This document shows, one piece after another, positions 32,027-61,413 of a DNA stretch of 64,000 nt. Position 1 is the stretch's first letter, and the number at the start of each line of letters is the position of its first letter. A program made the position numbers and the translations under genes. This DNA is from a virus. The notes under the pieces are model-generated. The model saw only the letters and a list, made by a program, of their open reading frames with translations, did no database searches and was not told where the DNA came from. Location: IMG/VR virus record IMGVR_UViG_3300042868_011620, positions 1 to 64,000 of that record. One strand, 5' to 3'.

Positions 32027-34713
32027 AAAGTAGACAAGAAAACTCTTCCCCATCCACTTCCAGCAGTGCCAGTACAAATGTAAAGACCAGATCCGCTAAC
32101 TGCCATTTCTCCAAATTTTCCAGTTTGACTAGATAACCCAGCAAAAGCTGGCAGGCTGAAATAAGTTCCAGCTGCGAAGTCTAATGTACAAGCATTTGCG
32201 GCTCTTGATAAGTGTACTCTATTATCGCCATCAGCTATTACTGTAGATCCACTATGAGAAGCTGGAATTGAAGCTCTTCTTCCTCCTAAAATACTTGAAA
32301 AATCTCCACTGGTAATATGTTTAGTGCCTCCCACAATAGTTGTGTACCTGCCACTAGAGGTATTTTCTTGACCTCCACCAATGAATGAATTTTCTCCGCT
32401 AGTGATTACATTAACCCATCCTCCTCCAATAGTTGAATATTGACCGCTAGAAGTATTCTCTCTTCCTCCTGCTATAACACTATTAATTCCAGACTTAATC
32501 TGATTGCCAGATCCGCCAACAATAACTGAATACTCGCCAGTAACATAGTTTGCGCCACCACCCCCAATAAATAATTTATTACCTCCGCAAACATTAGCTG
32601 ATCCACCTACTATAGAATTATGATTTCCAGTTGTAATTGCATTAACCTCTCCTCCACCAAGAACTGAATAATTTGCAGATGTGGTATTTTCAGATCCTCC
32701 ACCAATAGATGTATAAGATCCAGAAAGTATATTGTTTTCTCCTCCATTAATATTTGATATATCTGAATTGATTTCATTACCAAGTCCACCATTAATGCAT
32801 GAATTTGCACCAAAAGCGTTAATTGTATTATTATTTCCTCCATTAATATTTGAATTACTACCGTAAACTTTGTTTCCTTGTCCACCACCAATGAATGAAT
32901 AACCTCCAAGAATAATTTCATTACTATATCCGCCTAACACTGCCGAATTACTTCCACTACAAGTATTGTATTGACCTCCACCTACGATGCTATAATTTCC
33001 ACTTTTAATAACATTATTATTTCCAGCACCAATAAATGAATGCGTTCCGCTGTTTTTATTGTAAGTCCCCGCTCCAATTAATGAAAAATCTCCTTTAATA
33101 TCATTAACTGCTCCTCCCATTATAGCGCTATAATCTCCACTTGTAATAGTATTATTACTGCCAGCAACAATTGCTGTGGCTAATCCACTTGAACTATTAG
33201 CTTCTCCACCACCAATGAATGAATAGTCTCCATTAATAATTATATTTGTGTATCCCCCACCAACAAATGAATAATTTGCATTTGCTGTATTAGATAGTCC
33301 CGCAGCAATAGATGAAGATACTCCACTTGCCGAATTAGCCTTGCCAGCACCAATAAAAGCACCGCTTCCGCGTGCTATATTATCTTCCCCGCCGCCAATG
33401 AATGAAAATCCTCCATTGGATCGATTATTTTCGCCACCACAAATTGTGGAGTTTATACCACTAGTTTTATTAAAAGCCCCGCCTCCTATAAATGATAAAG
33501 TTCCACTAATAAAATTACCGCCACCCGCCATGATAGCGCTATAGTCTCCAATTACAATAGTATTATTGCTTCCAGCAACAATTGCCGCTCCTGATGCATT
33601 TACAGAATTAGCTTCTCCCCCCCCAATAAATGAATGAATTCCGCTTGTGATTGTATTACCTCCTCCTCCTCCAATAAATGCAAAGTTTCCATTTGCCATA
33701 TTACCAAATCCCGCAACAACAGATGAAGATGCTCCACTTGTAGAGTTAAATTGTCCAGCTCCAATAAAAGCATCACTTCCAATTGCTATATTATGTTCTC
33801 CACCACCAATAAAATTAAAAGCTCCATTTGATCGATTATCCTCGCCGCCACATATAGTAGAGTTTGTCCCGCTAGTAATGTTGAGTTCTCCTCCTCCAAT
33901 AAAAGAGTATTGGTCATTTATTCTATTTCCAGAACCCCCAACAATTGATGAATAGTTTGCTATTGTAGTATTTCTAAGTCCTCCCCCAATAAATGAATTA
34001 GCTCCACTGTTAATTCCACTAACTCCTCCAACTATACTAGCATATAATCCGCTATTGAAATTCCCAGATCCTCCACCAATAAAACTATAATCTTTTATAT
34101 TTATATTACCAGATCCTGCGCCAATAAATGAATTTTTTCCGCTTACTCTATTATTTTCTCCATTAACAATTGTGGAATATTCACCATGCGTAGTATTTAA
34201 ATATCCACCACCAATAAAAGAATTTGCTCCACTTGTTGTATTAAATCCTCCTGCTGCCACATACGATCCCGCGCCAACTTGAGAGTTGGAATTTGCAGTA
34301 TTTTTAATTTGATTTTGAAATGTTTTAAATCCTGATATATTTTGAGTTCCACTTGTAACTACAACATTAAGCGGATTAACTGCAATCGCATCAGATGAAA
34401 CTGTAATTCCATAACCAGTTCCAATATTTAATGTAATATCTCCAACTAATTGCCCACCCCCCACTAGTCCACTTCCAGCAATTACTAGTCTATCTGCGCG
34501 AAGTGCATGTTGAGTCGAGTTTGCTTGAGTAATTAAAAAAACTGGATTATTAAAATATTTCTCTCCAGTAATAAATTGATTTCCAGTTTTAGCAACAACT
34601 CCCCCCGCGTCCCAATTAACTGATCCGTTATTTCCCAGAGTAATTGGATTAGCTCCACTTTGATTTAAAACAAATGGATATGTTACGCTTACTTGTGTTG
34701 GACCTAAGTTCAT
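32023..34713 (-). CDS. Gly-rich beta-helical tail fibre/adhesin
   Basis: Dozens of 14-15-aa S[FA]I[GV]GGxxNxxxG repeats; N-terminal TGNQFITGEK and SGTQNISGFKTF fibre motifs. Confidence 0.8.
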   Translation of the reverse strand: MNLGPTQVSVTYPFVLNQSGANPITLGNNGSVNWDAGGVVAKTGNQFITGEKYFNNPVFLITQANSTQHALRADRLVIAGSGLVGGGQLVGDITLNIGTGYGITVSSDAIAVNPLNVVVTSGTQNISGFKTFQNQIKNTANSNSQVGAGSYVAAGGFNTTSGANSFIGGGYLNTTHGEYSTIVNGENNRVSGKNSFIGAGSGNINIKDYSFIGGGSGNFNSGLYASIVGGVSGINSGANSFIGGGLRNTTIANYSSIVGGSGNRINDQYSFIGGGELNITSGTNSTICGGEDNRSNGAFNFIGGGEHNIAIGSDAFIGAGQFNSTSGASSSVVAGFGNMANGNFAFIGGGGGNTITSGIHSFIGGGEANSVNASGAAIVAGSNNTIVIGDYSAIMAGGGNFISGTLSFIGGGAFNKTSGINSTICGGENNRSNGGFSFIGGGEDNIARGSGAFIGAGKANSASGVSSSIAAGLSNTANANYSFVGGGYTNIIINGDYSFIGGGEANSSSGLATAIVAGSNNTITSGDYSAIMGGAVNDIKGDFSLIGAGTYNKNSGTHSFIGAGNNNVIKSGNYSIVGGGQYNTCSGSNSAVLGGYSNEIILGGYSFIGGGQGNKVYGSNSNINGGNNNTINAFGANSCINGGLGNEINSDISNINGGENNILSGSYTSIGGGSENTTSANYSVLGGGEVNAITTGNHNSIVGGSANVCGGNKLFIGGGGANYVTGEYSVIVGGSGNQIKSGINSVIAGGRENTSSGQYSTIGGGWVNVITSGENSFIGGGQENTSSGRYTTIVGGTKHITSGDFSSILGGRRASIPASHSGSTVIADGDNRVHLSRAANACTLDFAAGTYFSLPAFAGLSSQTGKFGEMAVSGSGLYICTGTAGSGWGRVFLSTF

Positions 34714-34729
34714 ACTAATTTTTACACAT

Positions 34730-35920
34730 TTATTCTAAAGATTGCCAATTAACATTAATTGAACTCCATAAATTAGGTATTGTGTCCCACAGGGTTGGTT
34801 TTACTATTCTATCAATATAAAATCCTTTAGAATCATTCGTTTCTACTGAAAACTGCGCTGTAAAATTTAAAATATTATTAACAGCTATTGAATAATTAAA
34901 ATTATCGAGTTTAGCATTTGTTATACTGTAAAATCCAGTAGCAAATTTTGTTGGCTCTGAAAATAATATATCAAAATTATAACCACTTTCATTGTATAAC
35001 ATTCCACTTAAAAATCCACTTGAGAATCCAGAAACTTGAGCGGATAAACTTACTGATCCATTGATTGGATACTCTAACTTTCTGTTATAAACGTAATTAC
35101 TTCCTAGTCCATAAAGTGGAGTTCTTGGCAAATTAAAATTTAAGGATAAATTTTGCAATATAGGTTTAGATTGACTTGATAAAGCAACTCCTCCAACCTG
35201 TAAATTCTGTAAAGAGAATGTGCAATAAGATGGAACAGCTACTGGTTGATTATATTCTGTTTTGCCATTTGTTAGTCCCGTAACAAAATTTCCAGTTAAT
35301 GAAGAGTAAAGTCCAGATAAATTTAACGAACCAGCATTAATAGAATTTCCGCTGATGCTATTAATGGCTGGAATAGTGATTGAGTTTCCAGTTAAAACAT
35401 CAAATTTCATATTAGAAGCTTCAAATCCAACTGAAACTTTAGGTATTTGATTTAAACTAAAATCAACACTATACTTATTTAAATAGCAATTTCCAAAAGA
35501 TAAAACATTAAATCCACTATAGCTAGTGCTTGTGATACTTGGATTTTTAGGCTGATCAAACGCATCTCTAAGATCTTCTGGATCAACAACAATATAAAAA
35601 TTGTTGTTGTTGTTTTTCATATTAACAAATGCGCCAATATTAGCAGCACTTTTCTTCTGAAAATTCATTGCTAATTCGTTACTAATATAAGGCGATAAAT
35701 AATAATCAAAAGATAATTCTATATTTGGCGCTCTAACAAGATCATTAACAGAGTAGTCTTGACTTCCGATTTGTTTTAATTTTTGCCTCTCATTAGTAAC
35801 TGAAAAATTACAGTTTTGAACCAACGGAAATAATCGTGCAGAATCATTACCAGTCGTCCATGATGGAGACTGACCAATAGCTACAAATGCTGAATTGCTT
35901 TTTAAAATGGTTCTATTCAT
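34730..35920 (-). CDS. Tail-tube-like protein (paralogue of the major tail protein)
   Basis: VQNCNFSVTNERQ..QIG, FDYYL, GNCYLNKYSVD..IPKVSVGFEASN and LPRTPLYGLGS align by eye with 50262-51416. Confidence 0.7.
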   Translation of the reverse strand: MNRTILKSNSAFVAIGQSPSWTTGNDSARLFPLVQNCNFSVTNERQKLKQIGSQDYSVNDLVRAPNIELSFDYYLSPYISNELAMNFQKKSAANIGAFVNMKNNNNNFYIVVDPEDLRDAFDQPKNPSITSTSYSGFNVLSFGNCYLNKYSVDFSLNQIPKVSVGFEASNMKFDVLTGNSITIPAINSISGNSINAGSLNLSGLYSSLTGNFVTGLTNGKTEYNQPVAVPSYCTFSLQNLQVGGVALSSQSKPILQNLSLNFNLPRTPLYGLGSNYVYNRKLEYPINGSVSLSAQVSGFSSGFLSGMLYNESGYNFDILFSEPTKFATGFYSITNAKLDNFNYSIAVNNILNFTAQFSVETNDSKGFYIDRIVKPTLWDTIPNLWSSINVNWQSLE

Positions 35921-36858
35921 GAGCCTGTTGGTACTATTCCTAGCGGATCTTCAATTAATGACACTTCTAAATCATGAGAATTACTATAATTCCAAGTGTG
36001 ACTCCAAGATGGAGAGTAGAATACTTTCAATCTATTATACACTGATGGAGGATCACTATAGAATCTGCGATATCCACCTTTGTTTTCTAAGAAATGTAAA
36101 ATAGCTTTAGCTTTTTTGCTAGAAGCTTTGTCAAATTTATAAGAAAAATCTGTTGTGGCTATGTTTGTTCTTGTTTTCATTCTTTGAACAAATGAATTTT
36201 TAAATTCAATCTTATCAACCTTTAAAGCTACGCTATTCTGCATAGCAACATCTGGTTCAAAAAAGAAATATTGAGACCACTTTGTTTGACTTCCAGTTGG
36301 TCCATCAACAGCAGGATCTAAACCAGTATGATCTCCCGAACAATAATAATAGTTATCAAGCTTATTGGAGCTAGTTGGAAAATAAGCTATATCATATTTC
36401 TCATAAATTCTATTAGCTTCCCAAGCTTCAAGGGGAGCATTTATAAAAGTCATTCCAGACCAGTTTAATAAATTCGGAGCCTCATCAACTTGTAGAGATA
36501 AGTCAATCTCATAATGATTTTTATTAACATGATTGATAGAATAGTTATCAATTACTCCAGAAATTGTTTTATAAAAATCAGATGCATCTGAGAAAGGAAG
36601 CAAAGTGGTTCCATTTTTGTTCTCAACATAATTTATTAATTTTTGTGCGTTGAGTTCATTTAGCTCAAATTTTAATTGATACTCTGCGGTTAAGCTATTA
36701 ACTGATAATGGAATAAAATTATAATATCCATTATGAGTTTCGTAAGAATAATAAGTGCTTTTGAAATTTATTTTTGATCCATATGATGGAGTAAAAGTTA
36801 AATCTGTAATAGGAACAATTCCACTAATATTAGAATCTCTATTGTAAAAAGCGCTCAT
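35917..36858 (-). CDS. Minor tail protein (duplicated lambda gpM/distal-tail-like domains)
   Basis: F.PSY/F.PD starts and KAILHFLENKGG/KLINYVENKNG repeated halves; located downstream of the tape measure. Confidence 0.6.
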   Translation of the reverse strand: MSAFYNRDSNISGIVPITDLTFTPSYGSKINFKSTYYSYETHNGYYNFIPLSVNSLTAEYQLKFELNELNAQKLINYVENKNGTTLLPFSDASDFYKTISGVIDNYSINHVNKNHYEIDLSLQVDEAPNLLNWSGMTFINAPLEAWEANRIYEKYDIAYFPTSSNKLDNYYYCSGDHTGLDPAVDGPTGSQTKWSQYFFFEPDVAMQNSVALKVDKIEFKNSFVQRMKTRTNIATTDFSYKFDKASSKKAKAILHFLENKGGYRRFYSDPPSVYNRLKVFYSPSWSHTWNYSNSHDLEVSLIEDPLGIVPTGS

Positions 36859-37643
36859 GAGTGACCAATAAAGTTTAATGTTAATCTTACACCACCATCA
36901 GCACTACTAGAAAGGCGTTCAGATACTAAAGATGCATTTGGTATACTTATAGCTTGAAGAGTATTAGTTAATGTTTTATCTTTTATAGAAAACTCAACTG
37001 TTTTGTATTGGCGAATTGTTAAAAATTCAAAAGAATTTTGAAGAAAAGCGTCATCAACATCAATTTGCACAGATGCTGAATATTGCGTGGGAGCAACTGT
37101 AACTACTTCGTAAGGATTTTTATCTCCAACAACGTAGATTGCTTTTTTGCTAATCTTAATTGCATAATCAAATCCAACAACTCTGTTAGTTGAAGAGTAG
37201 TCGCAAACTAAAGATATACTTCCTTGATTAGGAATATAAATAGAGGGAGGTGGAACAGTTTGCGATGGAAGATCTTTAGTTACAATCTCATCGAATATAA
37301 CAAAATTAGTAGAAACTTTAGGTATTGATCCTATAGCACAATTAACCATATACTCAGTTAAATATCCATTAGAGAATCCGCACGATTTATCATTATACAC
37401 TAGGCCAGCCTCTACTACTCTTCCATCTACATAAGAATAAATTGGATCTGCATAAATTAAATTTCTAGAAACTGACAGCTGTTGAGAAGCTGCGCCTCCA
37501 ATTGATGTAAACGAGGAATTTCTTCCCAGCATGTTAGAAATAACTGCTGAATTAGTGTAGGATAAATCAAGACTTTCAATTCCTAATATTTCCTGATCAA
37601 GAATGAATAATCGATTATCGTAGATATTAGTAGAATCAAACAT
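36855..37643 (-). CDS. Tail-tube-like protein (second paralogue)
   Basis: NGYLTEYMVNCAIGSIPKVSTNF matches NAYITNYSLDASVGNLPTVSVSF of the major tail protein; adjacent to the tape measure. Confidence 0.6.
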   Translation of the reverse strand: MFDSTNIYDNRLFILDQEILGIESLDLSYTNSAVISNMLGRNSSFTSIGGAASQQLSVSRNLIYADPIYSYVDGRVVEAGLVYNDKSCGFSNGYLTEYMVNCAIGSIPKVSTNFVIFDEIVTKDLPSQTVPPPSIYIPNQGSISLVCDYSSTNRVVGFDYAIKISKKAIYVVGDKNPYEVVTVAPTQYSASVQIDVDDAFLQNSFEFLTIRQYKTVEFSIKDKTLTNTLQAISIPNASLVSERLSSSADGGVRLTLNFIGHS

Positions 37644-37644
37644 A

Positions 37645-40600
37645 TTACATTCCTCTTCTTAATTGACCTCCAAGGCGTTTTTCCTCTTGAATAACTTTTA
37701 AAACAGCATCTCTAATTTGACGCGAGAGTTGCTGGCCCGATTGTTGAGTTTGTCCAGTTGAAGCTTCTGAGCTTTTACCAGTAGATCCATCCACATTGAT
37801 TGTGATTGAGCCTGTTGATTTTTCAGTTGTGCCAATGAGTTCATCAAATTTAGAAATTAATTTATCATTTAAATCTCTAGAAGCTTTTTCGTCAACTGGT
37901 TTAGAAGCTCCAGCATTCATAGCTTGCAAGTTTCCTGTTCCAATGTTTTCAGCAGCAGCTTTGTTCATGATAAACTCGCCGCCAGAAAGCATTGTTGGGA
38001 TTGTGTCTATTCCTGCCGTTTGAGAAATTGATCCTCCAGTAGCTCTCTTTGCTGGAGTATATTTTTCAAGAAAACCTGGTGGAAATAATCCTCCATCATC
38101 AAATCCTCCTCCATATGGAAGAGCTAATCCATTTGCATTGGATTGATTTGAATTGATATTGTTACCAGCATTAACTTTTTGAGATTCTTGAATTGGTCCT
38201 ATAAAATCTTTGCCATAAGTTGATTGAATGTATTTAGAAGCATCAGTAATGCCACCTCTCTTTGAAAACATATTAAGGATTCCGCCATAATTATTTCCTT
38301 GTAATCCATCTACTCCTCCTCCCGTCACCATTCCTCCGAGTCCTGACATTGCATTTTTTGCAAATGTTCCGCCTGCAAGTTTTGATGTTGAGAAAGCATT
38401 TTTGAATCCACTCATTGCGCCACCCACTAATGCTGATCCAGCTATAGAAACTCCTGCCATAATCAAAGCATTTTTAAAAGCTTTTTTTCTAGCTTTCTTT
38501 TCTTCCTCTTCTTGTTTCTTAAGCTCAGCAGCTTTTCTCATTTCGTCAATATAAATGCCAAACATTTGCTTTCTAACATCTTTAGCTCTTTGAGCTTGCG
38601 GACTATTTCTTCTTCCAAAATTAGTTAATCTCACACTTTCTGGCTCTAAAGAGACTGATGCAAATCCATTTCCAGAACTAATTTTATCTTTGCTTCCGCT
38701 AGTATATTCTTGAGTTGCAAAAGCTAATAAATCATCATCAGTAGTCATTTGTTTCACTCCATAAGTTCCAGGAGTAAAATAATCTTTTACTTTTCCGCCT
38801 TTGGCGTATCCGTCTAAACTTCCAGAGTTGATAGCTTCTAAAAACGCTGGTCCATATTTATTAACTGATTTTTTATTAATAACATACTCACCGCCCATGA
38901 GCATTGCTGGAACGTCATCCTTGCTTCCGCTTCCTCCACGAATGTACCCTCCAGCAGCCGCACCCTGCGGAGCGCCAAAGCCTGGAAGAAAATTCCCCAA
39001 ACCTTGCGTAAATAAATCAGCCATATTAGAAATAGACTTGCTAGATATAGCTTTTAAAAAGCTAGTAGCAGCATCCATTAAAGACTCTTTTAATGATTTG
39101 GTTCCATCAAGAGCGCCTTCAATTGCAGATGCTAGACCATTAGAAAACAATTGAGGAATTTCTGTGCCAAATTTATATTGGAAATTGTTGGTTTGTTTAT
39201 TTAATTCTATAAATCCGCTACTTAATCCAGATTTGAAAGTTCCTTCTTGTTTATTTTTTTCTAACTCATCTTGAGTCTTACGTTCTTTATTTTGAGCTTT
39301 TATTTTTGCATTAGAAGCTTGTATTCTAGAGACTTGTTCAGTTAAATTTGTGGCATACTGAGTAATTTGATCTTGACTTCCATCTATAGTCTGTGCGATT
39401 GCATTAATCGCATCTGATAATTGAGAAGAGTCTAAAGTTTGATTTGCAAGTTTGTTTACAAGATCATTTGCCCTTGCAATAATTGCATCTGAGCTATTCA
39501 CATCTTTATATGCATTAACGCCATACGCTCCTAATGAACTATTAGGAGTTAGATTATTACTATTAGATATATTTTCTTGAGTTGGCGCTGAAACTGCAAG
39601 CCCATTAGTCTTCGTCGCTCTCTCTCCTCTCATTACTGCCCAGTATTTTGATAATCCTTGATATCCATCATTTTTATTTCCTCCAGCAATTGCCCCGCCA
39701 CTCTCCTCAATCATTTGTTTCATGATTTCAGCGGCAATCATTGCATTTTGTTGAGGATCTAATAAGTCTTCTTGCGTAATACTTGGTTTATTATTTTTTT
39801 CTCTCCATTTATTTACTGATTCAGTAGACATCTGAAATAAGCCAGTGCTTATAACATTTTTCCCTTGGTTGTCTTTAATTTTCTTTTCTTCGTATGTTTT
39901 TTTTGGATCAAACCCACTTTCTTCAGAAGCTATATTAGTTAAAAGTTTTTTCCAATCGCCTGGACCTGGAACATCTTTCCCAAAAAATTGTTGAGATTGC
40001 TCTTTATTAACTACCGTTGATTGTATACCAGAATATAGTACAGCTTTACTTATAGCCGCATCTATATTAGATGGAGTATTTGGAATATTACTTGAATTAA
40101 CCTGATTAGAAATCAATTGTGGATCTACAGGAGTAGAATCTTTTATCTGTTGTATTTGCTGTTGCAATTGATCGATTAATTTTCCTAATGTGTCTGTATT
40201 AGCATTTAAAGCAGAGATATTATCTTGCGTTAATAATTTTTTAGCTAAATCAATTGAAGCTTGACGATCTTCAATTTCTCTTTCTAATTGCACTCTTCTA
40301 TCAAAGGACTCTTTTTCAATTTGTTGTGTTTTTTCAATTCTGCCAGCTTCTGTTCTGATGCCTGAAAATGTATTAGGATTTGATAAAACATCATTTTTTC
40401 TCATTTCATCTATTTTGATAGATGATTCGGCAGCTATGTTTTGAATGCTTCTAGAGTTTAAAATTGTGTCTAATGAATTTGAATATTTCTGAAAATCTCT
40501 GTTAATTTGCTCAGTTGCTTTTTGTCTTTGTAAATCAATTAATAAAATTTCTTTATTTTTTAATGTTGTAGTTGAGAGATCTTTATTTGCATCTTTTATT

Positions 40601-43600
40601 GACTCCCCAATTTTGATAAATGACAAAGATAAAGCCTTTGCTGCTTCTTGAGAGTCATCTCCTTCAACTCCTAATTGTTTAAGAATATTTAAGCTTTGAG
40701 CTAATACTGATTGTGTATCAGTAGCTCCAGCTATATCTGTAAATAAATTAGGATTATTTTTTAATAAACTTGGTATGCCCTGAGTAATTGATTGCTTAGC
40801 TGGTGCGGTAACGCCTGTACCACTAAATCCTTCTTCTAGTAATGATTTCGCAGAAGTTAAAACGCTTAATTCTTGCGCAACTAAACCTGCTCTTTCTTCA
40901 TATTTTAAATTTATTAAACTTTCAATTTTTGATCTATCTTCGGCTGATACTGTTAAGCTATTAGACAAGGCTGAGAGTTCTCTTTGTTTTGCAATCTCAG
41001 CATTTGCGGAAATTTGAGCAAAGCTAGCTATTTTATTTTTATAGATAGACTCTGCTCCTAGCTCTCTAACATATTTTTCGAGAGCAATGTTTCTTGTTTC
41101 AACTGCCTCTTTCTCTTCTCTGCTTGTTGCTTGCAATTGCTCGCGAGTTTTCTTAACTATATTAATAGCAAAAGTTTTACCTATGCCTTGATCTTTAATT
41201 AAATCTGATATTAAATTTTCAGATTCTATAATCTTAGTTAATTCTCCAACGCTTTTACCAGCAATTAATGATTTTACTTTTATAGGATCATTTGTACTTT
41301 TATTGAGTAAAGATTCTACTTTTTTACCAATAAAATCTGAATTAATCGCTGTATAGTCTGGAGTTGCGGCTGCGGCTGCGGCTGCTTCGTTTTTTAGCTG
41401 TAATTCACTTTTCTTAGATGGGGTGCTCTCCCTATACATTCCACCCTTACCACCCATCATACCGTCTGTTAGTTGAACGGGCTTTAACTGAACTTCTCTG
41501 ATGGATGATTTTAAAAAGTCATCCATTTCTTGTTTTGTAACAGATCCAGCCTGTAACATTTCAAAAGCTTTAATAAGCTGCTCTTTCATTGGATCATCAA
41601 TAGATAGCCCAGCTCTCATTGACGTTTTCTCTCCACTTGCACTCTCAAATTGATAAGTCCCTTTTGTTAATTGAGCTACATATTCTTCCGCCTGTTTTTT
41701 AATAGAAGTTTGTTCCGTTGGATTATAATCTTGAAGATTAGCCGCAGCATTTTTTGCAGCATCAGCCAAAGAATTAGCAGCTTTTGCAGCCCTTTCATTT
41801 GCTCCAGAAAACTCGTAATATAGTTCTTTACCGCCTTTAAATACTTCGTATGCAATACCCAAAGCAGCTCCAACTTGTCCTAGTTTACCAAAAGCAGCTG
41901 TTAATTTATTACTAGATGATGCAATGCTAGAAAATCCACTCATTGCAAAAGCGGCAGTGCTCACATTAGATAAAGAATCAGCTACTATACTGGTATATTT
42001 TCCAATTTGAGAAGCGCTATCTTTAAAAGCGCCACTTAATAAAGATAATCCTCCTTGAACTGCAAAAATTGTGCCAAGCATTTTTTCACTAGACATTCCA
42101 GATTTTGGAGGTTCTGGTGGAGCTGCATTTATTTGAGCATTTGGTCTAGCTGGAGTTGGAAGTGGAAGTTTAGCGGGAGCGGCAGCAGCAGCGGGAGCCG
42201 AAGCAGACATCGCTTTTGTAACAGCAGCAGCAATTGATGCGGCAATTGCATTTGTTGCAGCAGTCACCGCTGCTGATTGATTTACTGGCGGTTGAGTATT
42301 AGAGGTGGAGTTTCCTGGTGTTTGAAATGACCCCATGGTAGCATAGTTTGGCACGAATCCATTAGCAGCACCATAAGTCATTGGATTGGCTCCCTCTTTA
42401 CGCGCTCTAGCAATGCCCTGAGAGCCTCCCATTGGTTCGTCAATACGATTAGCCACCATGAGTCCATTGGGATTCATGGCATTCTTTAATGATGCGTTCT
42501 GATCAATGTAAATTTGAGAAGCTGGAACGCCAGCACTCATTTCTCTTCCAATAGCAGCTTGAACTGGATCAGCAAAGTTTGGCAAAAATCCTTTAGCTCC
42601 AGATTTAGTAGTAGCTTTAACAAGAAGTTTAGCTAATTTATCTTGAAGAGTTTTGCTAACTTTTAAACCATAACTCTCAGCACTTTGAACAAACTTTACT
42701 GCATTTGGGCCAGCAAAAGATGCTGAATACATTGCGCTATCTTTAATGGTTTTAAAGATGCCCTCAGTCTCTAATCCATGACCAGCATCTCCTAAAACTA
42801 AATCTGCAAAAAATTTCTCTGGAAGAACCTTGAATAAATTACCAATGGTGCCAGTGGCGCTTCTATATTTTTGAGCTTTGGCGGATCTTTCTCTCTGTCT
42901 TCTTGCGTACTCTGGATCTTTTCCTAGTGCTACTGTAGTGTTTGCAAAGTTTGGAATGAATCCTCTAGCAGATCTTTCAGTAGTATTTCCTTTGGCAGCT
43001 TCTTTTAAACGAAAGGCGCTAATTTTTTGAGCCATGCTGCTTAAATTTGGATCGCTTAAATCATTTTTAAAATCAGCAGCTAGCATCTCTGGATTTATAT
43101 TGCCAGCGATAGAAGCTTTTAATATTCCGCCTCTTTCCATAGACCCAACAAATGAATTTAACTTGGTTCTACTTGGCAAATCAAATGTTTGACCAATATT
43201 TGGCGGCACTTCCATAGCCGACTGAAATACGCTTTCAAAAACTGTTCCAAAAGCAGCTTCAATAGTTCCAGGATTTAAATTACTTTTTATTCCTGCTGCA
43301 AATCTCTCTTCTTGTATGATATCAGGATTAAATCCTAAATTTTTAGCATAGTTCATTCCAGCATTAATAATTCCCTTTTCAACTTCAGGGTACAAGTCAT
43401 CTGATGGTTTTCCAATAATTGGAATACCCTTTACAACTTCTCTTTGATTTCCAACTAAAAATGATGAGACTTTTCCTTTTGAATTTGATGGATAAATCAT
43501 TCCAAATTCAGCTACAGCCCCAGTTGTATCTGCGCGTCTTGCAGTTACACCCTCTTGTTTATTAGATTTATAATCGTCTCTAATTTGAATAGCATTTTGT

Positions 43601-46203
43601 GCTATATGAAGATCAAGTGCTTTTGATATTTCAATAGCTTTTGTTTTATTAGGACTAGTTCCACTTTGTGCGCTAGCAGTTTTTATAAAATCAAATGTTT
43701 TACCATTTTTCAATGGGCTATCCCAAGCATTATAAGCAGCTTCTCTTTGGCTAATTGCAAAATTTGGAATAAAACCGTTAGCAGAAATGGGAATTTTAGT
43801 TCCAATTTGTTCTCTAGGAATATTTTTATATTTTTCAATGATCCGCCTAGCTTCACCAAATAATGAATTATGACTTATTCCAGTATTGCGATTTATTTCT
43901 GCTTTTTTATTTTTTTCTAATCTTTGATCATATTCTTTAGAAGAAGTACTTGGTAAAACTAAACGATTCCCTTTACCACCCATAAGTTCTGGAATTCCAA
44001 AACTAGGATCTTCATACGCTGCTTTTCCTGATAATTTAGCTTCTGCTATTTTGAAATTTCCTTTTTTAATATCCGCTTCTTGTTTGTTTTCTTGTATATC
44101 AATATACTTTAACCCCTGAAGGCGAGACTCAAATATTCTTCCAGCTAAAACATATGGAGCTGTTTTTTGATCTCCATTTTTCTCTGATTCAGATTCTACA
44201 ATATATCTATCAAAATTATATTTAAGATCTTTCCCCTGCAAACCTCCGATTCCAAATAACTGCTTATTTTTAGTATTTATATTTTCAATAGCTTTTTTAG
44301 CATAATTTGGTATAAAACCTTCGGCAGAATTAATTTTTTGCGCCCCACTAGGCATTCCCATTTTTCTCACCATGTCTCTATTAAAGATGGCGCTTCCGCT
44401 GCCTCCATTAAAGTTTGGAACAATGTGCTCACCAGAGTTTGCCACCATGGTTCCGCGTTTTCCGCCACCAAAGTTGAAATTTGGAATGACTACTGGCTTA
44501 TCTGAAGCTTTAGCTCCACCCACTCCACGTTTCACGCTAGAAGCTTCCTCTGCAACTGCTGGCATATATCCATCAGCAGCTTTTGGCACGCGCAAGCCTT
44601 GTCCTGTTGATCTAACGCCACTGCCGTATAAACCAGGAGCAATTGCAGCAGATGTGCTAGCAATTCTTCTAAGCATAGCCTCCTGATTAATAATCTCAGC
44701 GCTAATAATTTTTAATTGAGCTGCGCGATTTCCCTCAAGACCCAACAATCTCTGTTGTAAAGAAACATTTGTAGACAGTGCTTGAGCAACAGACTTTTCA
44801 ACATCTGCAATTTGTTTAGCAGCTTGACCAATGCCAAAAAAACTTTTTAAACTAGAAAATCCAAACTGAACAAGATCCCTGGACAACTTGAGAATGATAG
44901 CTCCAAACAGTGCTAGTCCTGGCCCAGAGATTACTGCTCCAATTCCTTTAGCGAGTCCTTTAAAAAATGTGCCAACAGCACTATCTTCTCTTAATAAATT
45001 TTGAACACTATCCAAAAGACCACCAAAGAAATTAAGAATATTTTTTAAATTATCAGTAACGCCAAGTTCGCCAAGAGTCGCGCCAAGTTGCTGAGCACTA
45101 ATAAGTGTTTTATTAATGATAGCTTCTAAAGTTTGATTTAAAGCTGCGTTTTTCTTATAAGCCTCGTCACTCACTTTAGCTGAGACTTCAATTGCTTTTC
45201 TATAAACTGACTGAGCGCTAGATAAATCTTGCACAGCAGCTAATAAATTGTTTAATTGATAAATTCCGCCTAATTTTTGAGAAATATCAGACTGATCTAA
45301 TGCAGAAAAAGATTCAAATTGTGCTGCTAAATTTTCTAATAATTTAGATGCTGGTAATAGTTTTCCTTGCAAGTCTGTAACTTGAATTCCAATATCTTTT
45401 AAATATGAAATTGTGCTAGTATTTTGAAGTCCTGCAAAAATCGTTTTGAATGACTGACCAATGACTGCGCCACCTCTAGAAGTCTTTTCTTGAACAGCAG
45501 TAATTAAACCAGCAAGTTCATCAAAAGAAACTCCAGCTTGTTTAGCAGTAGAGCCAGATCTCTTGATACCTTCAATAAGATCTCGCTCAGAAACAGCGTA
45601 TTCCTGAGAAACTGCAACAAGTTTATTTAAAATTTGAGCAGTTGTTATTCCAGTTTCTTTAAAAGAGTTGAATGCTGCTGTTAAACCAGAAACAGCATCT
45701 TCTGAACTCAAACCAGATAGTCTAGTTAAAATAAGAGCGTCGCTCAAGCGCTTTAAAACTTCTTCAGCTCCTAATCCTTGGCGAGATAACTCTAATGCTC
45801 CATTAGCAACATCCTTAAAGGTTTGAGATGTATTTTTAGCAATATTAAATAATCCATCTCCAAATTTTTGAAGTCCAGCGCCACTTTCATTTAAAGCAGT
45901 GTTAATACTAGCTAAAGAACTTTCAACTTCAATTGTATTTTGAACAACGCTCTTAAGAGCTTGACTAACGCTATTAATAATTCCAACAGATGCTCCGAAT
46001 GCAAAGACGCGAGCATTCGCAGCTTCCATTGATTTTGTGAATTGATCAGCTTGACCAGTGATTCTTCCCAGCGGTTGAGATAGCGAAGAGATTTGTTTGG
46101 CGCTAGTGCCCAAATTAATTACAGCACTTTTACCAGCGCTTTTCATTGCTGCTTGGATGCTTGCTTCTAAACCTGTTTGTACTACTGGAAGTTGTAATGC
46201 CAT
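37645..46203 (-). CDS. Tape measure protein with inserted cassettes and a lytic transglycosylase domain
   Basis: TP901-type TMP core (A...ELSRQG, GVSFDEL, RGGAVIGQSFKTIF), long helical regions, SLT motifs EESGFDP/STGLFQM/LLDP, repeated GFIPNFA motifs. Confidence 0.9.
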   Translation of the reverse strand: MALQLPVVQTGLEASIQAAMKSAGKSAVINLGTSAKQISSLSQPLGRITGQADQFTKSMEAANARVFAFGASVGIINSVSQALKSVVQNTIEVESSLASINTALNESGAGLQKFGDGLFNIAKNTSQTFKDVANGALELSRQGLGAEEVLKRLSDALILTRLSGLSSEDAVSGLTAAFNSFKETGITTAQILNKLVAVSQEYAVSERDLIEGIKRSGSTAKQAGVSFDELAGLITAVQEKTSRGGAVIGQSFKTIFAGLQNTSTISYLKDIGIQVTDLQGKLLPASKLLENLAAQFESFSALDQSDISQKLGGIYQLNNLLAAVQDLSSAQSVYRKAIEVSAKVSDEAYKKNAALNQTLEAIINKTLISAQQLGATLGELGVTDNLKNILNFFGGLLDSVQNLLREDSAVGTFFKGLAKGIGAVISGPGLALFGAIILKLSRDLVQFGFSSLKSFFGIGQAAKQIADVEKSVAQALSTNVSLQQRLLGLEGNRAAQLKIISAEIINQEAMLRRIASTSAAIAPGLYGSGVRSTGQGLRVPKAADGYMPAVAEEASSVKRGVGGAKASDKPVVIPNFNFGGGKRGTMVANSGEHIVPNFNGGSGSAIFNRDMVRKMGMPSGAQKINSAEGFIPNYAKKAIENINTKNKQLFGIGGLQGKDLKYNFDRYIVESESEKNGDQKTAPYVLAGRIFESRLQGLKYIDIQENKQEADIKKGNFKIAEAKLSGKAAYEDPSFGIPELMGGKGNRLVLPSTSSKEYDQRLEKNKKAEINRNTGISHNSLFGEARRIIEKYKNIPREQIGTKIPISANGFIPNFAISQREAAYNAWDSPLKNGKTFDFIKTASAQSGTSPNKTKAIEISKALDLHIAQNAIQIRDDYKSNKQEGVTARRADTTGAVAEFGMIYPSNSKGKVSSFLVGNQREVVKGIPIIGKPSDDLYPEVEKGIINAGMNYAKNLGFNPDIIQEERFAAGIKSNLNPGTIEAAFGTVFESVFQSAMEVPPNIGQTFDLPSRTKLNSFVGSMERGGILKASIAGNINPEMLAADFKNDLSDPNLSSMAQKISAFRLKEAAKGNTTERSARGFIPNFANTTVALGKDPEYARRQRERSAKAQKYRSATGTIGNLFKVLPEKFFADLVLGDAGHGLETEGIFKTIKDSAMYSASFAGPNAVKFVQSAESYGLKVSKTLQDKLAKLLVKATTKSGAKGFLPNFADPVQAAIGREMSAGVPASQIYIDQNASLKNAMNPNGLMVANRIDEPMGGSQGIARARKEGANPMTYGAANGFVPNYATMGSFQTPGNSTSNTQPPVNQSAAVTAATNAIAASIAAAVTKAMSASAPAAAAAPAKLPLPTPARPNAQINAAPPEPPKSGMSSEKMLGTIFAVQGGLSLLSGAFKDSASQIGKYTSIVADSLSNVSTAAFAMSGFSSIASSSNKLTAAFGKLGQVGAALGIAYEVFKGGKELYYEFSGANERAAKAANSLADAAKNAAANLQDYNPTEQTSIKKQAEEYVAQLTKGTYQFESASGEKTSMRAGLSIDDPMKEQLIKAFEMLQAGSVTKQEMDDFLKSSIREVQLKPVQLTDGMMGGKGGMYRESTPSKKSELQLKNEAAAAAAATPDYTAINSDFIGKKVESLLNKSTNDPIKVKSLIAGKSVGELTKIIESENLISDLIKDQGIGKTFAINIVKKTREQLQATSREEKEAVETRNIALEKYVRELGAESIYKNKIASFAQISANAEIAKQRELSALSNSLTVSAEDRSKIESLINLKYEERAGLVAQELSVLTSAKSLLEEGFSGTGVTAPAKQSITQGIPSLLKNNPNLFTDIAGATDTQSVLAQSLNILKQLGVEGDDSQEAAKALSLSFIKIGESIKDANKDLSTTTLKNKEILLIDLQRQKATEQINRDFQKYSNSLDTILNSRSIQNIAAESSIKIDEMRKNDVLSNPNTFSGIRTEAGRIEKTQQIEKESFDRRVQLEREIEDRQASIDLAKKLLTQDNISALNANTDTLGKLIDQLQQQIQQIKDSTPVDPQLISNQVNSSNIPNTPSNIDAAISKAVLYSGIQSTVVNKEQSQQFFGKDVPGPGDWKKLLTNIASEESGFDPKKTYEEKKIKDNQGKNVISTGLFQMSTESVNKWREKNNKPSITQEDLLDPQQNAMIAAEIMKQMIEESGGAIAGGNKNDGYQGLSKYWAVMRGERATKTNGLAVSAPTQENISNSNNLTPNSSLGAYGVNAYKDVNSSDAIIARANDLVNKLANQTLDSSQLSDAINAIAQTIDGSQDQITQYATNLTEQVSRIQASNAKIKAQNKERKTQDELEKNKQEGTFKSGLSSGFIELNKQTNNFQYKFGTEIPQLFSNGLASAIEGALDGTKSLKESLMDAATSFLKAISSKSISNMADLFTQGLGNFLPGFGAPQGAAAGGYIRGGSGSKDDVPAMLMGGEYVINKKSVNKYGPAFLEAINSGSLDGYAKGGKVKDYFTPGTYGVKQMTTDDDLLAFATQEYTSGSKDKISSGNGFASVSLEPESVRLTNFGRRNSPQAQRAKDVRKQMFGIYIDEMRKAAELKKQEEEEKKARKKAFKNALIMAGVSIAGSALVGGAMSGFKNAFSTSKLAGGTFAKNAMSGLGGMVTGGGVDGLQGNNYGGILNMFSKRGGITDASKYIQSTYGKDFIGPIQESQKVNAGNNINSNQSNANGLALPYGGGFDDGGLFPPGFLEKYTPAKRATGGSISQTAGIDTIPTMLSGGEFIMNKAAAENIGTGNLQAMNAGASKPVDEKASRDLNDKLISKFDELIGTTEKSTGSITINVDGSTGKSSEASTGQTQQSGQQLSRQIRDAVLKVIQEEKRLGGQLRRGM
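42340..44580 (-). repeat. Repeated peptide motif [SAG]AxG[FY][ILV]PN[FY]A in the tape measure
   Basis: SAEGFIPNYA 44299-44328, SANGFIPNFA 43756-43785, SARGFIPNFA 42943-42972, GAKGFLPNFA 42571-42600, AANGFVPNYA 42340-42369; partial AADGYMP 44560-44580. Confidence 0.9.
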
Positions 46204-46240: not shown

Positions 46241-47218
46241 CTAACCATCCATCAATTTCATCATTTGTTCCATATTAAGACTTCCGCCATTTTGCCTAAC
46301 AGCATCTTCTAAAGAAATAGTTCGAGCATTAGGATCTATTTGCTTCAAATCTTCTTTTGTAGCTCCAAAAACTACTGTTGATTCAGAGTCCCTAGACTGT
46401 CTTTGAGATGACTGCTTGCCAGTCTTTTTGCTTTCAGAGAATCTTAAAATTGCAGATGGATCTTTTTTAATATTGTCTGGAAGATCTTCGTTATATTGAA
46501 ATATATTAAAAAATACTCTAGCATACAAAGCTAGTTTTAATTGAAAGATTGATAATTGAATAATTGGCTTACCATAAAATGCTGACAAGTGCTCTGTTTG
46601 AGAAAGATACATGTTAAAGAAATCTCTCAAAACACAATGTTGAATATTGTCTTCGCTCAGTCTAGCATTAGAAGTTGAATAAATTTTAACTAAATAATTT
46701 ATATTATAATCTTCCAAATCGTCAAACTCTTCTTGCGAAAATAAATGTTCCTTGAGAGTTTCGTCTTTGAATAAAATATATCTTATAAACTCTTCATTTG
46801 TTCTGGTAGAAGCGTAAGACTCTGCTGTATTACCAGAAATTTCTTTTTTAGCGGACAGCAATTTGCTTAATTCATAATTCTTCTCAAGAATAGTTTTATT
46901 AAAATTACTTTTTTGAGATGGTAAGTAAGCTGCTTTTTGAGACTCTTTTAATTTAGTAATTTCAAACTCTAAATTAGCAATATTTAAATCATCAGAGTCG
47001 CTCCACAAGTCGTCATTTTTTAGTCTAACTAAAATTTCTTTTTCACTTGGTATTCCCTTTTGTAAAGCAATGTTTTTATATTTATCATAATAGCGATGAA
47101 TATATCTCTGATCTCTAATTGAGAAATGCTTCAAGTACGCTGGTCTTCCAGCGTACTCGAATTCTGTATAGCCATCAAATATTTCTCCAACTATAGAAAT
47201 ATACTCTTCTTCGCTCAC
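46241..47218 (-). CDS. Putative tail assembly chaperone
   Basis: Directly upstream of the tape measure; GTG start overlapping the previous stop. Confidence 0.5.
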   Translation of the reverse strand: MSEEEYISIVGEIFDGYTEFEYAGRPAYLKHFSIRDQRYIHRYYDKYKNIALQKGIPSEKEILVRLKNDDLWSDSDDLNIANLEFEITKLKESQKAAYLPSQKSNFNKTILEKNYELSKLLSAKKEISGNTAESYASTRTNEEFIRYILFKDETLKEHLFSQEEFDDLEDYNINYLVKIYSTSNARLSEDNIQHCVLRDFFNMYLSQTEHLSAFYGKPIIQLSIFQLKLALYARVFFNIFQYNEDLPDNIKKDPSAILRFSESKKTGKQSSQRQSRDSESTVVFGATKEDLKQIDPNARTISLEDAVRQNGGSLNMEQMMKLMDG

Positions 47219-47970
47219 AATTCATTAGTTTCGAGTCGTTTCATCAATCCATCAAAAGAGTCTTTGTCAGATGTTTGGTTGAAGAACCAAAATGCTAAAA
47301 TTGTTGCAGCCTTTTTAGTAATCAAAAAGTACAAAGGATCTTCGCCCTCTTCTCTCTTGTAGTACTCTTCCATCTTGTCTTCAAAAGATCCCTTGCCAAA
47401 AAATGGCTTTGGATTTTCATCACCCTCTTCTTGAACATGAGTGAGCATAATAACATACCAGAGAATGAGTCGATTCTGCGCTCTAACATCTGCTGTATGA
47501 TCAAACAAAGATTGATAGTTGCTTTCAAACTCTACAATTTGGCGGCGAACTTTAACAAGATCAGTAGAAATTTCCTCTACTCTTTCTTTTTGTTTGTCAG
47601 TTTTATTTTGAACAATTTCTAGACGAGAGTATTCATTTTGTAAATCAAAAATCTTTTTGTAAGAATCCACTAAGGACTGAGCATCATCTTCACTCATTAA
47701 GCCGCCAGTATCGCTGTACTTTTTGGCTAACATAGCTTTTGTCAAAATGCCTTTCTTGACACATCGACTCATCTCAACACTAAACTCTAACTCAGCCTCT
47801 TCAAGCTCTCTGCGCGAGGGGCGTTTTAGTTTAATAACTACTGGCACCTTTTCTTTAACTGTTTTTTTAGTGATAGTTTCTTCACCAGTTTTCTTATCTT
47901 TCTTAGAAGACTCGATTACTTTTTCCACTTCTTTATCTACTGTAAAATTGTATAGTTCTTTAAATTCCAT
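47215..47970 (-). CDS. Putative tail assembly chaperone
   Basis: Charged helical protein with a LKRPSRRE motif, two genes upstream of the TMP. Confidence 0.5.
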   Translation of the reverse strand: MEFKELYNFTVDKEVEKVIESSKKDKKTGEETITKKTVKEKVPVVIKLKRPSRRELEEAELEFSVEMSRCVKKGILTKAMLAKKYSDTGGLMSEDDAQSLVDSYKKIFDLQNEYSRLEIVQNKTDKQKERVEEISTDLVKVRRQIVEFESNYQSLFDHTADVRAQNRLILWYVIMLTHVQEEGDENPKPFFGKGSFEDKMEEYYKREEGEDPLYFLITKKAATILAFWFFNQTSDKDSFDGLMKRLETNEL

Positions 47971-51483: not shown

Positions 51484-51933
51484 TTAGTTTATATCTGTTT
51501 CAATTCCGCCTAATTGAAGTGGCTCAGATTGATACATGTTATATTTGTGACTCATAGAATCAATTTTAGCTTGGCAATCTGTTGCCATGGACTTGTAGAC
51601 TTTTGCTACTTCGTTTTTATTAGTGAATGATACTGAGCTATTGCCATCTCGTAAACTCAAAACATCTCCTCCATTAGATGCTGAAAGTATGCCTCTGAGA
51701 GCATTACGAGATTGTTTATTGTAATAACTACAGAGATACATCTCTTTATAAATGGCGCTAGACTCTAAATCCAAGAGCGCTCCGCTACCACTATACGATG
51801 TATTAATAAGTGTATTTAATTGTCCAAGATTCTCATTTAGCCAAGAGGTGATGTAAGACTCTGGAACAATGCCAGAATCTCCATCAAATTCAGTTTGAAA
51901 AATGCCAGAACTTAAATCACTAATAGCGCTCAT
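51484..51933 (-). CDS. Putative head-tail adaptor
   Basis: Downstream of capsid genes; SLRDGNSSVSF resembles the adaptor S.x.GD.SVSY motif. Confidence 0.5.
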   Translation of the reverse strand: MSAISDLSSGIFQTEFDGDSGIVPESYITSWLNENLGQLNTLINTSYSGSGALLDLESSAIYKEMYLCSYYNKQSRNALRGILSASNGGDVLSLRDGNSSVSFTNKNEVAKVYKSMATDCQAKIDSMSHKYNMYQSEPLQLGGIETDIN

Positions 51934-51947
51934 ATAAACATTTTACA

Positions 51948-52394
51948 CTAAATGTCATTGATAATTTTCATTAAGTGTTTATGTTCAGGATTATTAGGGT
52001 CCATTACAAAGCTATTCATAGAAGTTGGCATGATGTTTCTGCGGCTATTGCGCGTGGAAGCAGAGAATTCTTTTAATAAGTTTTTCTTTAGAGTGGGATA
52101 ATCGTGAAAAGGATTGAGTCCAACTTTTTGAGCAAGTTTTTGAATTTCTGATAAGCTCATGCCAGCCAAGGACTCTTGAAATACTTCTAGTTCATTAGTT
52201 CCGAATGGGCTAATCTGAGATACTCCTAATAGGATTTCTAACTCTCTCATTTTAGCTACAAATTCTGGAGTGTTTGTGGAATTTGAAGCTCTCATTTCGT
52301 TGATTTCTTCAATCAGTGTGCGGCTGGAATGTGGATTAGATTCATAACTAGAGGTTACTCCGTTGGCAGTTTCCATTTGATTTGTGTTGCTCAT
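51948..52394 (-). CDS. Hypothetical protein (possible Rho-N/HeH-like helical domain)
   Basis: LAGMSLSEIQKLAQKVGL motif; follows the capsid gene. Confidence 0.5.
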   Translation of the reverse strand: MSNTNQMETANGVTSSYESNPHSSRTLIEEINEMRASNSTNTPEFVAKMRELEILLGVSQISPFGTNELEVFQESLAGMSLSEIQKLAQKVGLNPFHDYPTLKKNLLKEFSASTRNSRRNIMPTSMNSFVMDPNNPEHKHLMKIINDI

Positions 52395-52428
52395 ACTATA
52401 TTATAAATTAAATATAGCGTTTTTAAAT

Positions 52429-52457
52429 AAAAAGAGCCGCCCCTTTCAGGGCGGCTC
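52429..52457 (-). terminator. Rho-independent terminator after the major capsid gene
   Basis: gagccgccc/gggcggctc stem with a T-run on the minus strand. Confidence 0.85.
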
Positions 52458-52475
52458 AGTTTAAGAAAGACTAGC

Positions 52476-53618: not shown

Positions 53619-53639
53619 TATATTTTAAAAGGGTTAAGA

Positions 53640-54275: not shown

Positions 54276-54287
54276 ATATTTTTTTAA

Positions 54288-55871: not shown

Positions 55872-55877
55872 TAATGA

Positions 55878-58245: not shown

Positions 58246-58299
58246 ATTTTCATTTGGATTTACACTAAAATAGTAAAAGTCAACTTTAAAAGTTTAAAG

Positions 58300-61407: not shown

Positions 61408-61413
61408 AATATT

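Follow-up and report, generated by a model that had tools for sequence, protein, structure and literature searches.

Tape measure proteins (TMPs) of the TP901-1 type (PF10145) have an N-terminal core, are encoded before the tail-tip genes and can have an SLT domain embedded in their C-terminal half. We describe here a TMP with the same layout, the product of gene P0001 in a viral DNA stretch of 64,000 nucleotides (positions 1 to 64,000 of IMG/VR record IMGVR_UViG_3300042868_011620; hereafter the window). Unlike the TP901-1-type TMPs described in the literature that we searched, it holds an array of non-wall-acting domains fenced by copies of a ten-residue peptide motif, and comparison with relatives supports the motif as the boundary at which these domains are exchanged. 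Nothing on the motif or on motif-fenced TMP arrays was found in print (‘PNFA’ together with ‘tape measure’ gave 0 papers, with subscription journals outside the coverage of the search). An initial annotation of the window, made from its letters alone, had proposed that the motif is a cleavage or recombination boundary between interchangeable effector domains delivered at infection, and had likened the arrangement to polymorphic toxins and polyvalent proteins.

An enzyme within a tape measure is known from Thermus phage P23-45, in which the N-terminal part of gp96, a TMP of 5002 amino acids (aa), is a working virion RNA polymerase (PMC10770324); the polymerase is proposed to act beside the incoming DNA, and not to be cut off (PMC10770324). 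The window case would be similar in placing a predicted cytoplasm-acting enzyme in the head-proximal part of the TMP. It differs in that the single enzyme of gp96 is fixed and sits at the very N-terminus, with neither a repeated junction motif nor cassette exchange. Polyvalent proteins of phages and conjugative elements (Iyer et al. 2017, PMC5512222) are also large polypeptides of unrelated, fast-reshuffled domains, including GNAT and nucleases, and are believed to accompany the DNA into the host. They are marked by embedded zincin-like peptidases for self-processing, described as pervasive (PMC5512222), whereas Pfam finds no peptidase in the window TMP, and in this respect the proposed analogy fails. 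That paper has 0 occurrences of ‘tape measure’ or ‘tape-measure’ and describes no conserved junction peptide (PMC5512222); moreover, in the window TMP family most cassettes belong to families that occur in TMPs alone. Sle1-type TMP-related effectors of actinobacterial contractile injection systems share a TMP-derived scaffold with an exchangeable domain loaded in a tail-like tube (PMC13277306), yet these systems are cellular, with a single functional domain at the C-terminus plus a partner protein, and not a phage ruler that holds an internal multi-cassette array and a junction motif. In polymorphic toxins, too, a conserved delivery part is combined with variable modules swapped by recombination at a conserved junction; here, in contrast, the variable modules are internal and multiple, one cassette is universal and another (cassette 1) is unique to TMPs.

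The junction motif

The TMP is a single open reading frame (ORF) of 2852 aa, placed in the TP901 family by a core domain above the curated cut-off and by its position as a very long tail-module ORF upstream of tail-tip genes. PHROGs return tape-measure families exclusively, down to E 3.3e-52, and Pfam on the whole protein returns PhageMin_Tail, SLT and one chance-level row, nothing else. With PhageMin_Tail at aa 122-313, the initial annotation was right to call the protein a tape measure with its motifs after the core.

Five full copies of the motif, [SAG]AxGF[ILV]PN[FY]A, start at aa 626, 807, 1078, 1202 and 1279 (the G of G[FY][ILV]PN[FY] falling at aa 629, 810, 1081, 1205 and 1282), and a partial copy, AADGYMP, occupies aa 542-548 (44560-44580, minus strand) within module 1, the first element of the array. 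Motif search returned exactly the positions given in the initial annotation, and the segment lengths given with them (77, 171, 261, 114 and 67 aa, within 42340-44580, equivalent to aa 542-1288) are correct; it added two degenerate copies, VIPNF at aa 573 (44476-44487) and VPNF at aa 595 (44410-44421), both also within module 1. The TMP's own composition leads one to expect 4.2e-5 matches per protein by chance, compared to the 5 observed. Among the other ORFs of at least 60 aa in the window the motif is absent, except from one 62-aa antisense ORF at 21175.

A logo built from 517 distinct instances in relatives reads A-A-x-G-[FY]-[IV]-P-N-[FY]-[AV], with G and P invariant, N 99% conserved and little conservation beyond the ten residues. 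The window's five copies differ in synonymous codons, and in distant pairs modules 1 and 0 (the first and last elements of the array) retain 69-79% residue identity at a third-position identity of merely 38-55%; because synonymous codons vary and module residues are kept despite third-position divergence, selection acts on the peptide rather than on the DNA. In AlphaFold models of cassettes 1 and 2, coil is predicted for the motif ends (pLDDT 35-51) and alpha/beta structure for the domain cores (pLDDT ∼80-90). Coil in the models together with protein-level selection indicates that the motif is an exposed linear element in the linkers between domains.

Three other roles for the motif were considered and rejected. 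It is not a pure DNA recombination signal, since its copies differ in synonymous codons. Pairing in cis of the two motifs of one cassette, which would loop the domain out, is ruled out by their coil state in the models; those flanking cassette 2 pair neither with each other nor with the domain. A head maturation protease site is ruled out by the absence of the motif from the window's other ORFs, head genes included.

Organization of the array

The array spans aa 534-1288, in the N-proximal third of the TMP, and comprises module 1, cassettes 1, 2 and 3, and module 0, with a motif at each junction and after the last module (Table 1). By the sequence families defined below, the order is 1-11-2-5-0. 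The three cassettes are mutually unrelated, as the initial annotation had judged: profile–profile comparison by hhalign gives cassette 2 against cassette 1 a probability of 10.8% over 24 columns, the best pair, and cassette 3 against either of the others nothing above 5%. Module 0 has invariant positions R, E, N, P, G, D-E-P and Q-G. Neither module 1 (by tblastn) nor module 0 has a match among 50,697 phage records, and in the ESM Atlas cassettes 2 and 3 fall only in unnamed viral clusters, which gave no lead.

Modules 1 and 0 look paralogous by inspection, both having G-x-M-V-A-x-x-x-[DE] after a motif or motif-like start, but hhalign gives them only 1.2% probability. Module 1 also resembles duplicated P-x-M-L-x-G-G-E modules near the C-terminus of the TMP (37910-38961).

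The cassettes are, as had been noted, more AT-rich than the flanking modules, with a G+C content (GC) of 0.30, 0.35 and 0.37 for cassettes 1-3 as against 0.48 and 0.46 for modules 1 and 0 (window overall, 0.35). At third codon positions (GC3) the cassettes range from 0.14 to 0.21, the rest of the TMP gene stands at 0.19, and modules 1 and 0 stand at 0.37 and 0.31. Because the GC3 of the cassettes equals that of the rest of the gene, it is the flanking modules that are odd in composition. The idea that the AT-rich cassettes are foreign DNA was rejected on the same grounds, the conserved modules being the ones that deviate. Amino-acid composition alone is insufficient to explain the high GC3 of the modules; it could reflect frequent exchange with higher-GC phages, or an mRNA constraint.

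Relatives and cassette exchange

A search with aa 530-1300 retrieved 488 proteins at E ≤ 0.001, and the counts for relatives given here refer to the 120 of these that were listed. All 120 are TMPs (1663-4358 aa), each with 2-11 motif copies; the first copy typically falls close to aa 630, and a distance of 77 residues typically separates the last two. Their inter-motif stretches group into 43 sequence families, 17 with a single member, and are arranged in 72 architectures, so that cassette number and identity do vary between conserved motifs, as the reading in the initial annotation would require. The near-universal elements are module 1 (115/120), module 0 (117/120) and one core cassette, represented by families 2, 9, 14 and 22, which hhalign relates to one another (95, 81 and 71% probability) and which jointly occur in 117/120 proteins. 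Setting the window's order against these elements identifies its cassette 2 as the core and its cassettes 1 and 3 as optional. The minimal architecture, 1-2-0, consists of module 1, the core cassette and module 0, without any optional cassette. Cassettes 1 and 3 are present in 13/120 and 19/120 relatives; cassette 2, whose superfamily is in 117/120, is not interchangeable cargo. Certain families also keep fixed places: family 5 is always before module 0, its sole following neighbour, and family 8 always after module 1, while other cassette families move and duplicate.

Variants of the scheme were seen at its margins. In a distant subgroup (L032-L041, with TMPs of ∼2240 aa; e.g. L035:3572-3850), a full motif also stands upstream of module 1, on which side the window has only AADGYMP, and the closing module is of a different type. 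A giant ORF of 3071 aa at L152, cut by the locus end, has 13 motif copies, several cassettes of ∼60-90 residues and more degenerate flanks.

The exchange itself can be followed in close pairs. Compared with L003, the closest listed relative, the window has 79-86% nucleotide identity on both sides of an exchanged cassette: homology breaks off at aa 642, seven residues past motif 1, and picks up again inside motif 2, at aa 808, as does homology to L002. The site of cassette 1 is taken in L003 by an unrelated family 8 cassette, and in L004 it holds no cassette. At identical residues, third-position identity between the window and L003 is 0.92 for cassette 2 and 0.68 for the core, and between the window and L004 it is 0.89 for cassette 3 and 0.62 for cassette 2; the cassettes within one phage pair have separate histories, or ages. 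Relatives thus gain, lose and replace cassettes at the motif, which is the only sequence common to all junctions. Of the two functions first proposed for the motif, that of a recombination boundary is borne out by these homology breaks at or beside motifs 1 and 2 and by the variety of architectures.

Contigs from four lake sequencing runs add modest support for breaks centred on the motif. In runs X11 and X15 they part from the window at 42971, on the upstream edge of motif 3, the motif being shared, and in runs X12 and X13 at 44303, inside motif 1. Among the loose contig ends listed (20 of 25), four are at a motif; the support is modest because others fall in cassettes (42742, 43213, 43884 and 43918, plus 44269 in cassette 1, 30 bases from motif 1), in module 1 (44465, 44529 and 44555) and, for eight of them, in a Pro/Ala-rich linker at 42172-42206, with one further downstream at 42067.

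Contigs of all four lake runs diverge in that linker, just past the array, which suggests a hypervariable or length-variable low-complexity stretch. A second large variable zone of the TMP, aa 1315-2416 (38956-42259), lacks nucleotide homology to L003, L002 and L004, its flanks being 77-86% identical. The zone contains the SLT domain, in place of which relatives have VanY, NlpC/P60 or lysozyme domains.

Cassette families and predicted functions

To the database relatives we added viral contigs, scanned for DNA that would encode GFIPNFA. At least 119 loci were found, 97 of them with two or more motif copies, and up to 13, in one giant ORF; most single-copy loci sit in tiny ORFs and are chance matches. 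With these loci included, there are 313 distinct cassettes in 82 clusters. The representatives of four clusters reach curated Pfam cut-offs, one as an SNase domain, two as GNAT and one as a cytidyltransferase-related domain (HIGH_NTase1_ass), and NCBIfam and PHROGs agree, with nuclease and cytidyltransferase matches. The ORFs carrying them have the TMP core or the C-terminal part in common with the window TMP. The initial reading of cassettes as effectors gains from these enzymes of relatives, which have no tail-building role, and loses by the lack of any Pfam match for the window's own cassettes.

Cassette 1 is plausibly a nuclease. In its 16 sequences G63, R64, F66, E67, E80, D86, E96, A97 and K98 are invariant (numbering on window:43756-44328:-), in the residue order of a PD-(D/E)XK site, relatives reading PD-x9-EAK. 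Its AlphaFold model is alpha/beta (pLDDT 71.7), and 14 of 50 VIA-align rows for the model read as restriction-endonuclease-like fold (YaeQ, CdiA-CT, T7 endonuclease I, FAAP24, AF1548, BsaWI, EcoRII, NucS, Can2 and R2), all at Z 2.6-3.5, below the level at which such matches can be trusted. Cassette 2, also alpha/beta in its model (pLDDT 71.1), has invariant G180, F183, E184 and D202 plus a lysine, with an E-to-D spacing of 18 residues, close to the 19 of cassette 1; its profile has no match among PDB sequences (best E 0.3).

Topology and proposed role

The window TMP has hydrophobic 19-mers at aa 416-442, 1310-1331, 1375-1393 and 2575-2600, so that the array lies between such segments and contains none. 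The same holds widely: of 116 complete relatives, 114 have a hydrophobic segment before the array and 72 have one within 200 aa after it, and in 115 the array itself lacks hydrophobic 19-mers. The initial annotation had allowed that the segments might fold as ordinary TMP helices; the arrays without hydrophobic segments, together with the mixed alpha/beta structure predicted for both modelled cassettes, speak otherwise. Arrays are between 304 and 1890 aa long, and longer arrays are not offset by a shorter remainder of the protein (Pearson r = 0.14, p = 0.14). Wall-hydrolase domains (SLT, VanY or NlpC/P60) are always downstream of the array in the window and its relatives.

On balance, we lean towards the view that the head-proximal third of this ruler is an array of soluble, independently folding, motif-fenced domains that is reshuffled at the motif and acts early in infection. 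Its first components, the recombination boundary and the interchangeable soluble modules, are supported by the comparisons above. Carriage of the array into the cell we infer from known TMP behaviour, from the enzyme cassettes of relatives and, by analogy, from the precedent of P23-45 gp96. The TMP would leave the tail C-terminus first, its SLT domain acting on the wall and its hydrophobic segments entering the membrane. Being bracketed by hydrophobic segments and head-proximal, the array would be last out, following beside the incoming end of the DNA. Its domains (nuclease-like here; SNase, GNAT or nucleotidyltransferase-like in relatives) may then act early in infection, either still tethered to the TMP, as is proposed for the P23-45 RNA polymerase, or cut free at the motif.

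Several results weigh against this account. At E up to 5, Pfam gives no family for any of the window's three cassettes or two modules, bar one chance-level row. Foldseek finds no row at E ≤ 0.001 for the cassette 1 model in the PDB or BFVD, nor for the cassette 2 model in the PDB; by VIA-align, the best Z for cassette 1 is 3.5, and cassette 2 has only a helical hairpin match (best Z 5.0 over 50 residues). With no Pfam, significant Foldseek or strong structural match, no enzymatic cassette is demonstrated in the window phage itself. Cassette 2 is a fixed component rather than cargo, and the 78 of 82 cassette representatives that stay below the curated Pfam cut-offs could be structural. Cassette 1 has 15 matches in 1.84 billion representative proteins, 13 inside large TMPs and two in TMP fragments with motif flanks; it is TMP-restricted, unlike effector domains common to several delivery systems. 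The analogy with polymorphic toxins suffers on these same two counts, and further because no peptidase was recognised and immunity genes are not apparent; the cassettes, being internal to one ORF, are not followed by any small gene. No peptidase domain was found in the TMP by Pfam, nor in 20 neighbouring products by PHROGs (10 also by Pfam). The fixed positions of some cassettes are compatible with recombination in adjoining homologous sequence and not only in the motif. Finally, the lumen of a siphophage tail tube is a few nanometres wide, too narrow for three copies of folded domains of 170-260 aa to lie next to one another, and the tail would need to hold the array in an unfolded or extended state.

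Should the array be delivered, it would constitute a widespread, undescribed route by which long-tailed phages bring ready-made proteins in ahead of their DNA, with hundreds of such TMPs in lake and other metagenomes. The plug-in architecture flags dozens of protein families as candidate early-acting factors, and it suggests how foreign domains might be built into phage tails. Because the junction peptide is simple and invariant, peptide mass spectrometry could directly test both whether the TMP is cut and what it does after ejection. Delivered or not, the array is a clear natural instance of domain shuffling at a defined peptide.

Alternative explanations

What the motif does in the protein bears on this role. 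It may be an uncut docking or assembly peptide that binds a chaperone, the tube wall, a neighbouring TMP chain or a host factor, or else a joint at which domains unfold and refold in the tube; we regard this as quite possible, though short of probable. Strict conservation at the protein level in an exposed, unstructured conformation would suit such a role, as would the three [IV]PNF-like units inside module 1, which recall a repeated binding or structural unit, and the retention of the motif even in the minimal 1-2-0 architecture. The P23-45 model, moreover, requires no cleavage (PMC10770324). Against it, in the single-chain model the motifs flanking cassette 2 contact neither each other nor the domain, any partner is hypothetical, and it is unexplained why a docking site would be needed at every junction. 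A trimer prediction (three chains of module 0 with its flanking motifs, from a 13-row alignment) scored 0.00, which is no answer and counts neither for nor against binding.

Rather unlikely, in our estimate, is a true polyprotein in which a phage or host protease cuts the motif, or in which it cleaves itself at its Asn, triggered by assembly or ejection, so that each cassette is freed. Processing is known for the TMPs of lambda and T5, and some non-enveloped viruses have penetration proteins that cleave themselves in an Asn-dependent manner. A motif of about ten residues with conserved G, P and N, predicted to sit in a disordered linker and present at every junction, the end of the last module included (in the distant subgroup also before module 1), has the look of a processing site, and polyvalent phage proteins are thought to be separated after delivery (PMC5512222). 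Against this, the universal modules 1 and 0 lack any conserved Ser, His or Cys, neither the TMP nor the neighbouring products surveyed contain a recognised peptidase, and a motif confined to the TMP within the 64-kb window cannot be where a general protease of virion maturation cuts. Pfam likewise found no peptidase inside the arrays of five whole relatives, and one of the 82 cassettes has a weak NCBIfam metalloprotease row (E 4e-4).

A bolder combination of processing and delivery, which we consider unlikely, would make the TMP a programmable injection rack, the motif being a processing site, possibly self-cleaving at Asn once the TMP is out of the tube, that releases an enzyme cocktail at DNA entry to disarm defences or prepare the cell. 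Recombination at the motif in lake phage populations would re-deal this cocktail, which would be lineage-specific and would contain nucleases, acetyltransferases, nucleotidyltransferases and dozens of families without assigned function.

Very unlikely is a structural spacer array, with cassettes as length or plug elements of a long ruler, no role in the host and the motif a tolerated recombination scar: most cassette representatives do fall below curated Pfam cut-offs (78/82), cassette 1 is TMP-specific and the TMP is mosaic elsewhere too (aa 1315-2416 relative to L003), but a scar would not hold ten near-invariant residues, with free synonymous change, in TMPs whose identity elsewhere is 20-30%, SNase and GNAT domains serve no structural purpose, the cassette models are globular alpha/beta folds instead of long helices, and array length is uncompensated by the rest of the protein.

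Feature coordinates and genomic setting

Features of the window TMP, and the loci of the enzyme cassettes of relatives, are collected in Table 1.

Table 1. Coordinates of the tape measure gene, of the elements of its array and of recognised enzyme cassettes in related loci (window positions unless a locus is named)
Feature	Position	Strand	Evidence or occurrence
TMP gene P0001	37645..46203	minus	ORF and translation; Pfam PhageMin_Tail and SLT; PHROG tape-measure families
TP901-type TMP core, PhageMin_Tail, aa 122-313	45265..45840	minus	Pfam E 2.3e-27, 96.6 bits vs cut-off 33.2
Hydrophobic segment, aa 416-442, upstream of array	44878..44958	minus	Kyte-Doolittle 19-mer peak 1.97
Module 1, aa 534-625, 92 aa, universal	44329..44604	minus	First element in 115/120 relatives
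Motif 1, SAEGFIPNYA, aa 626-635	44299..44328	minus	Motif match
Cassette 1, aa 636-806, family 11, optional, invariant E..PD..EAK	43786..44298	minus	In 13/120 relatives
Motif 2, SANGFIPNFA, aa 807-816	43756..43785	minus	Motif match
Cassette 2, aa 817-1077, family 2, near-universal core cassette	42973..43755	minus	Superfamily in 117/120 relatives
Motif 3, SARGFIPNFA, aa 1078-1087	42943..42972	minus	Motif match
Cassette 3, aa 1088-1201, family 5, optional, always adjoins module 0	42601..42942	minus	In 19/120 relatives
Motif 4, GAKGFLPNFA, aa 1202-1211	42571..42600	minus	Motif match
Module 0, aa 1212-1278, 67 aa, universal, closes array	42370..42570	minus	Last element in 117/120 relatives
Motif 5, AANGFVPNYA, aa 1279-1288	42340..42369	minus	Motif match
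Pro/Ala-rich linker and two hydrophobic segments, aa 1289-1393, just past array	42025..42339	minus	Translation; hydropathy
SLT lytic transglycosylase domain, aa 2082-2170, outside array	39694..39960	minus	Pfam E 1.1e-8, 35.1 bits vs cut-off 21.3
SNase cassette	L158:8769-9341		Pfam 38.5 bits
GNAT cassette	L156:9923-10321		Pfam 25.3 bits
GNAT cassette	L118:6774-7298		Pfam 22.3 bits
Cytidyltransferase-related cassette (HIGH_NTase1_ass)	L100:4172-6145		Pfam 33.3 bits

The window phage is an uncultured lake siphovirus with a TP901-type TMP. The 24 sequencing runs listed as matching the window are all lake-water or freshwater metagenomes, 12 of them containing at least half of the sampled words, and no RNA run is among the matches listed. 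The second gene downstream of the TMP (35917-36858, minus strand) encodes a lambda gpM-like Phage_min_tail protein (Pfam, 52.8 bits against a cut-off of 39). Among 20 neighbouring products compared with PHROGs, 10 of them also with Pfam, only the terminase, an ERCC4-type nuclease and this gpM-like minor tail protein were recognised, and none could be named a protease or chaperone; the products of 46241-47218 and 47215-47970 are candidate chaperones. Among the 50,697 phage records, 143 match the TMP; in the best 30 of these the alignment is confined to the N-terminal core (aa 13-492, 24-28% identity), and none of the records reaches 80% coverage of the window TMP. The lineage is very distant from cultured phages. 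Most genes of the structural module (51484-63936 and 32023-37643) are without any PHROG or Pfam match.

A first scan of genome contigs found no relatives there. A scan of such contigs with the motif pattern gave at least 120 matches, and among the matches listed 118 are single and at chance level; those that look real are L198, with 5 copies in a 3960-base contig of a metagenome-assembled genome labelled Proteobacteria, and L263, with 2 copies.

The large terminase subunit (58300-61407, minus strand) has 1035 aa, with the terminase match limited to aa 490-871. Its N-terminal aa 76-345 match PHROG families with ribonucleotide reductase and helicase annotations, a pattern that an intein or other insertion might give. 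The gene of the ERCC4-type nuclease (61414-62340, minus strand; PHROG 3490, E 9e-14) adjoins that of the terminase.

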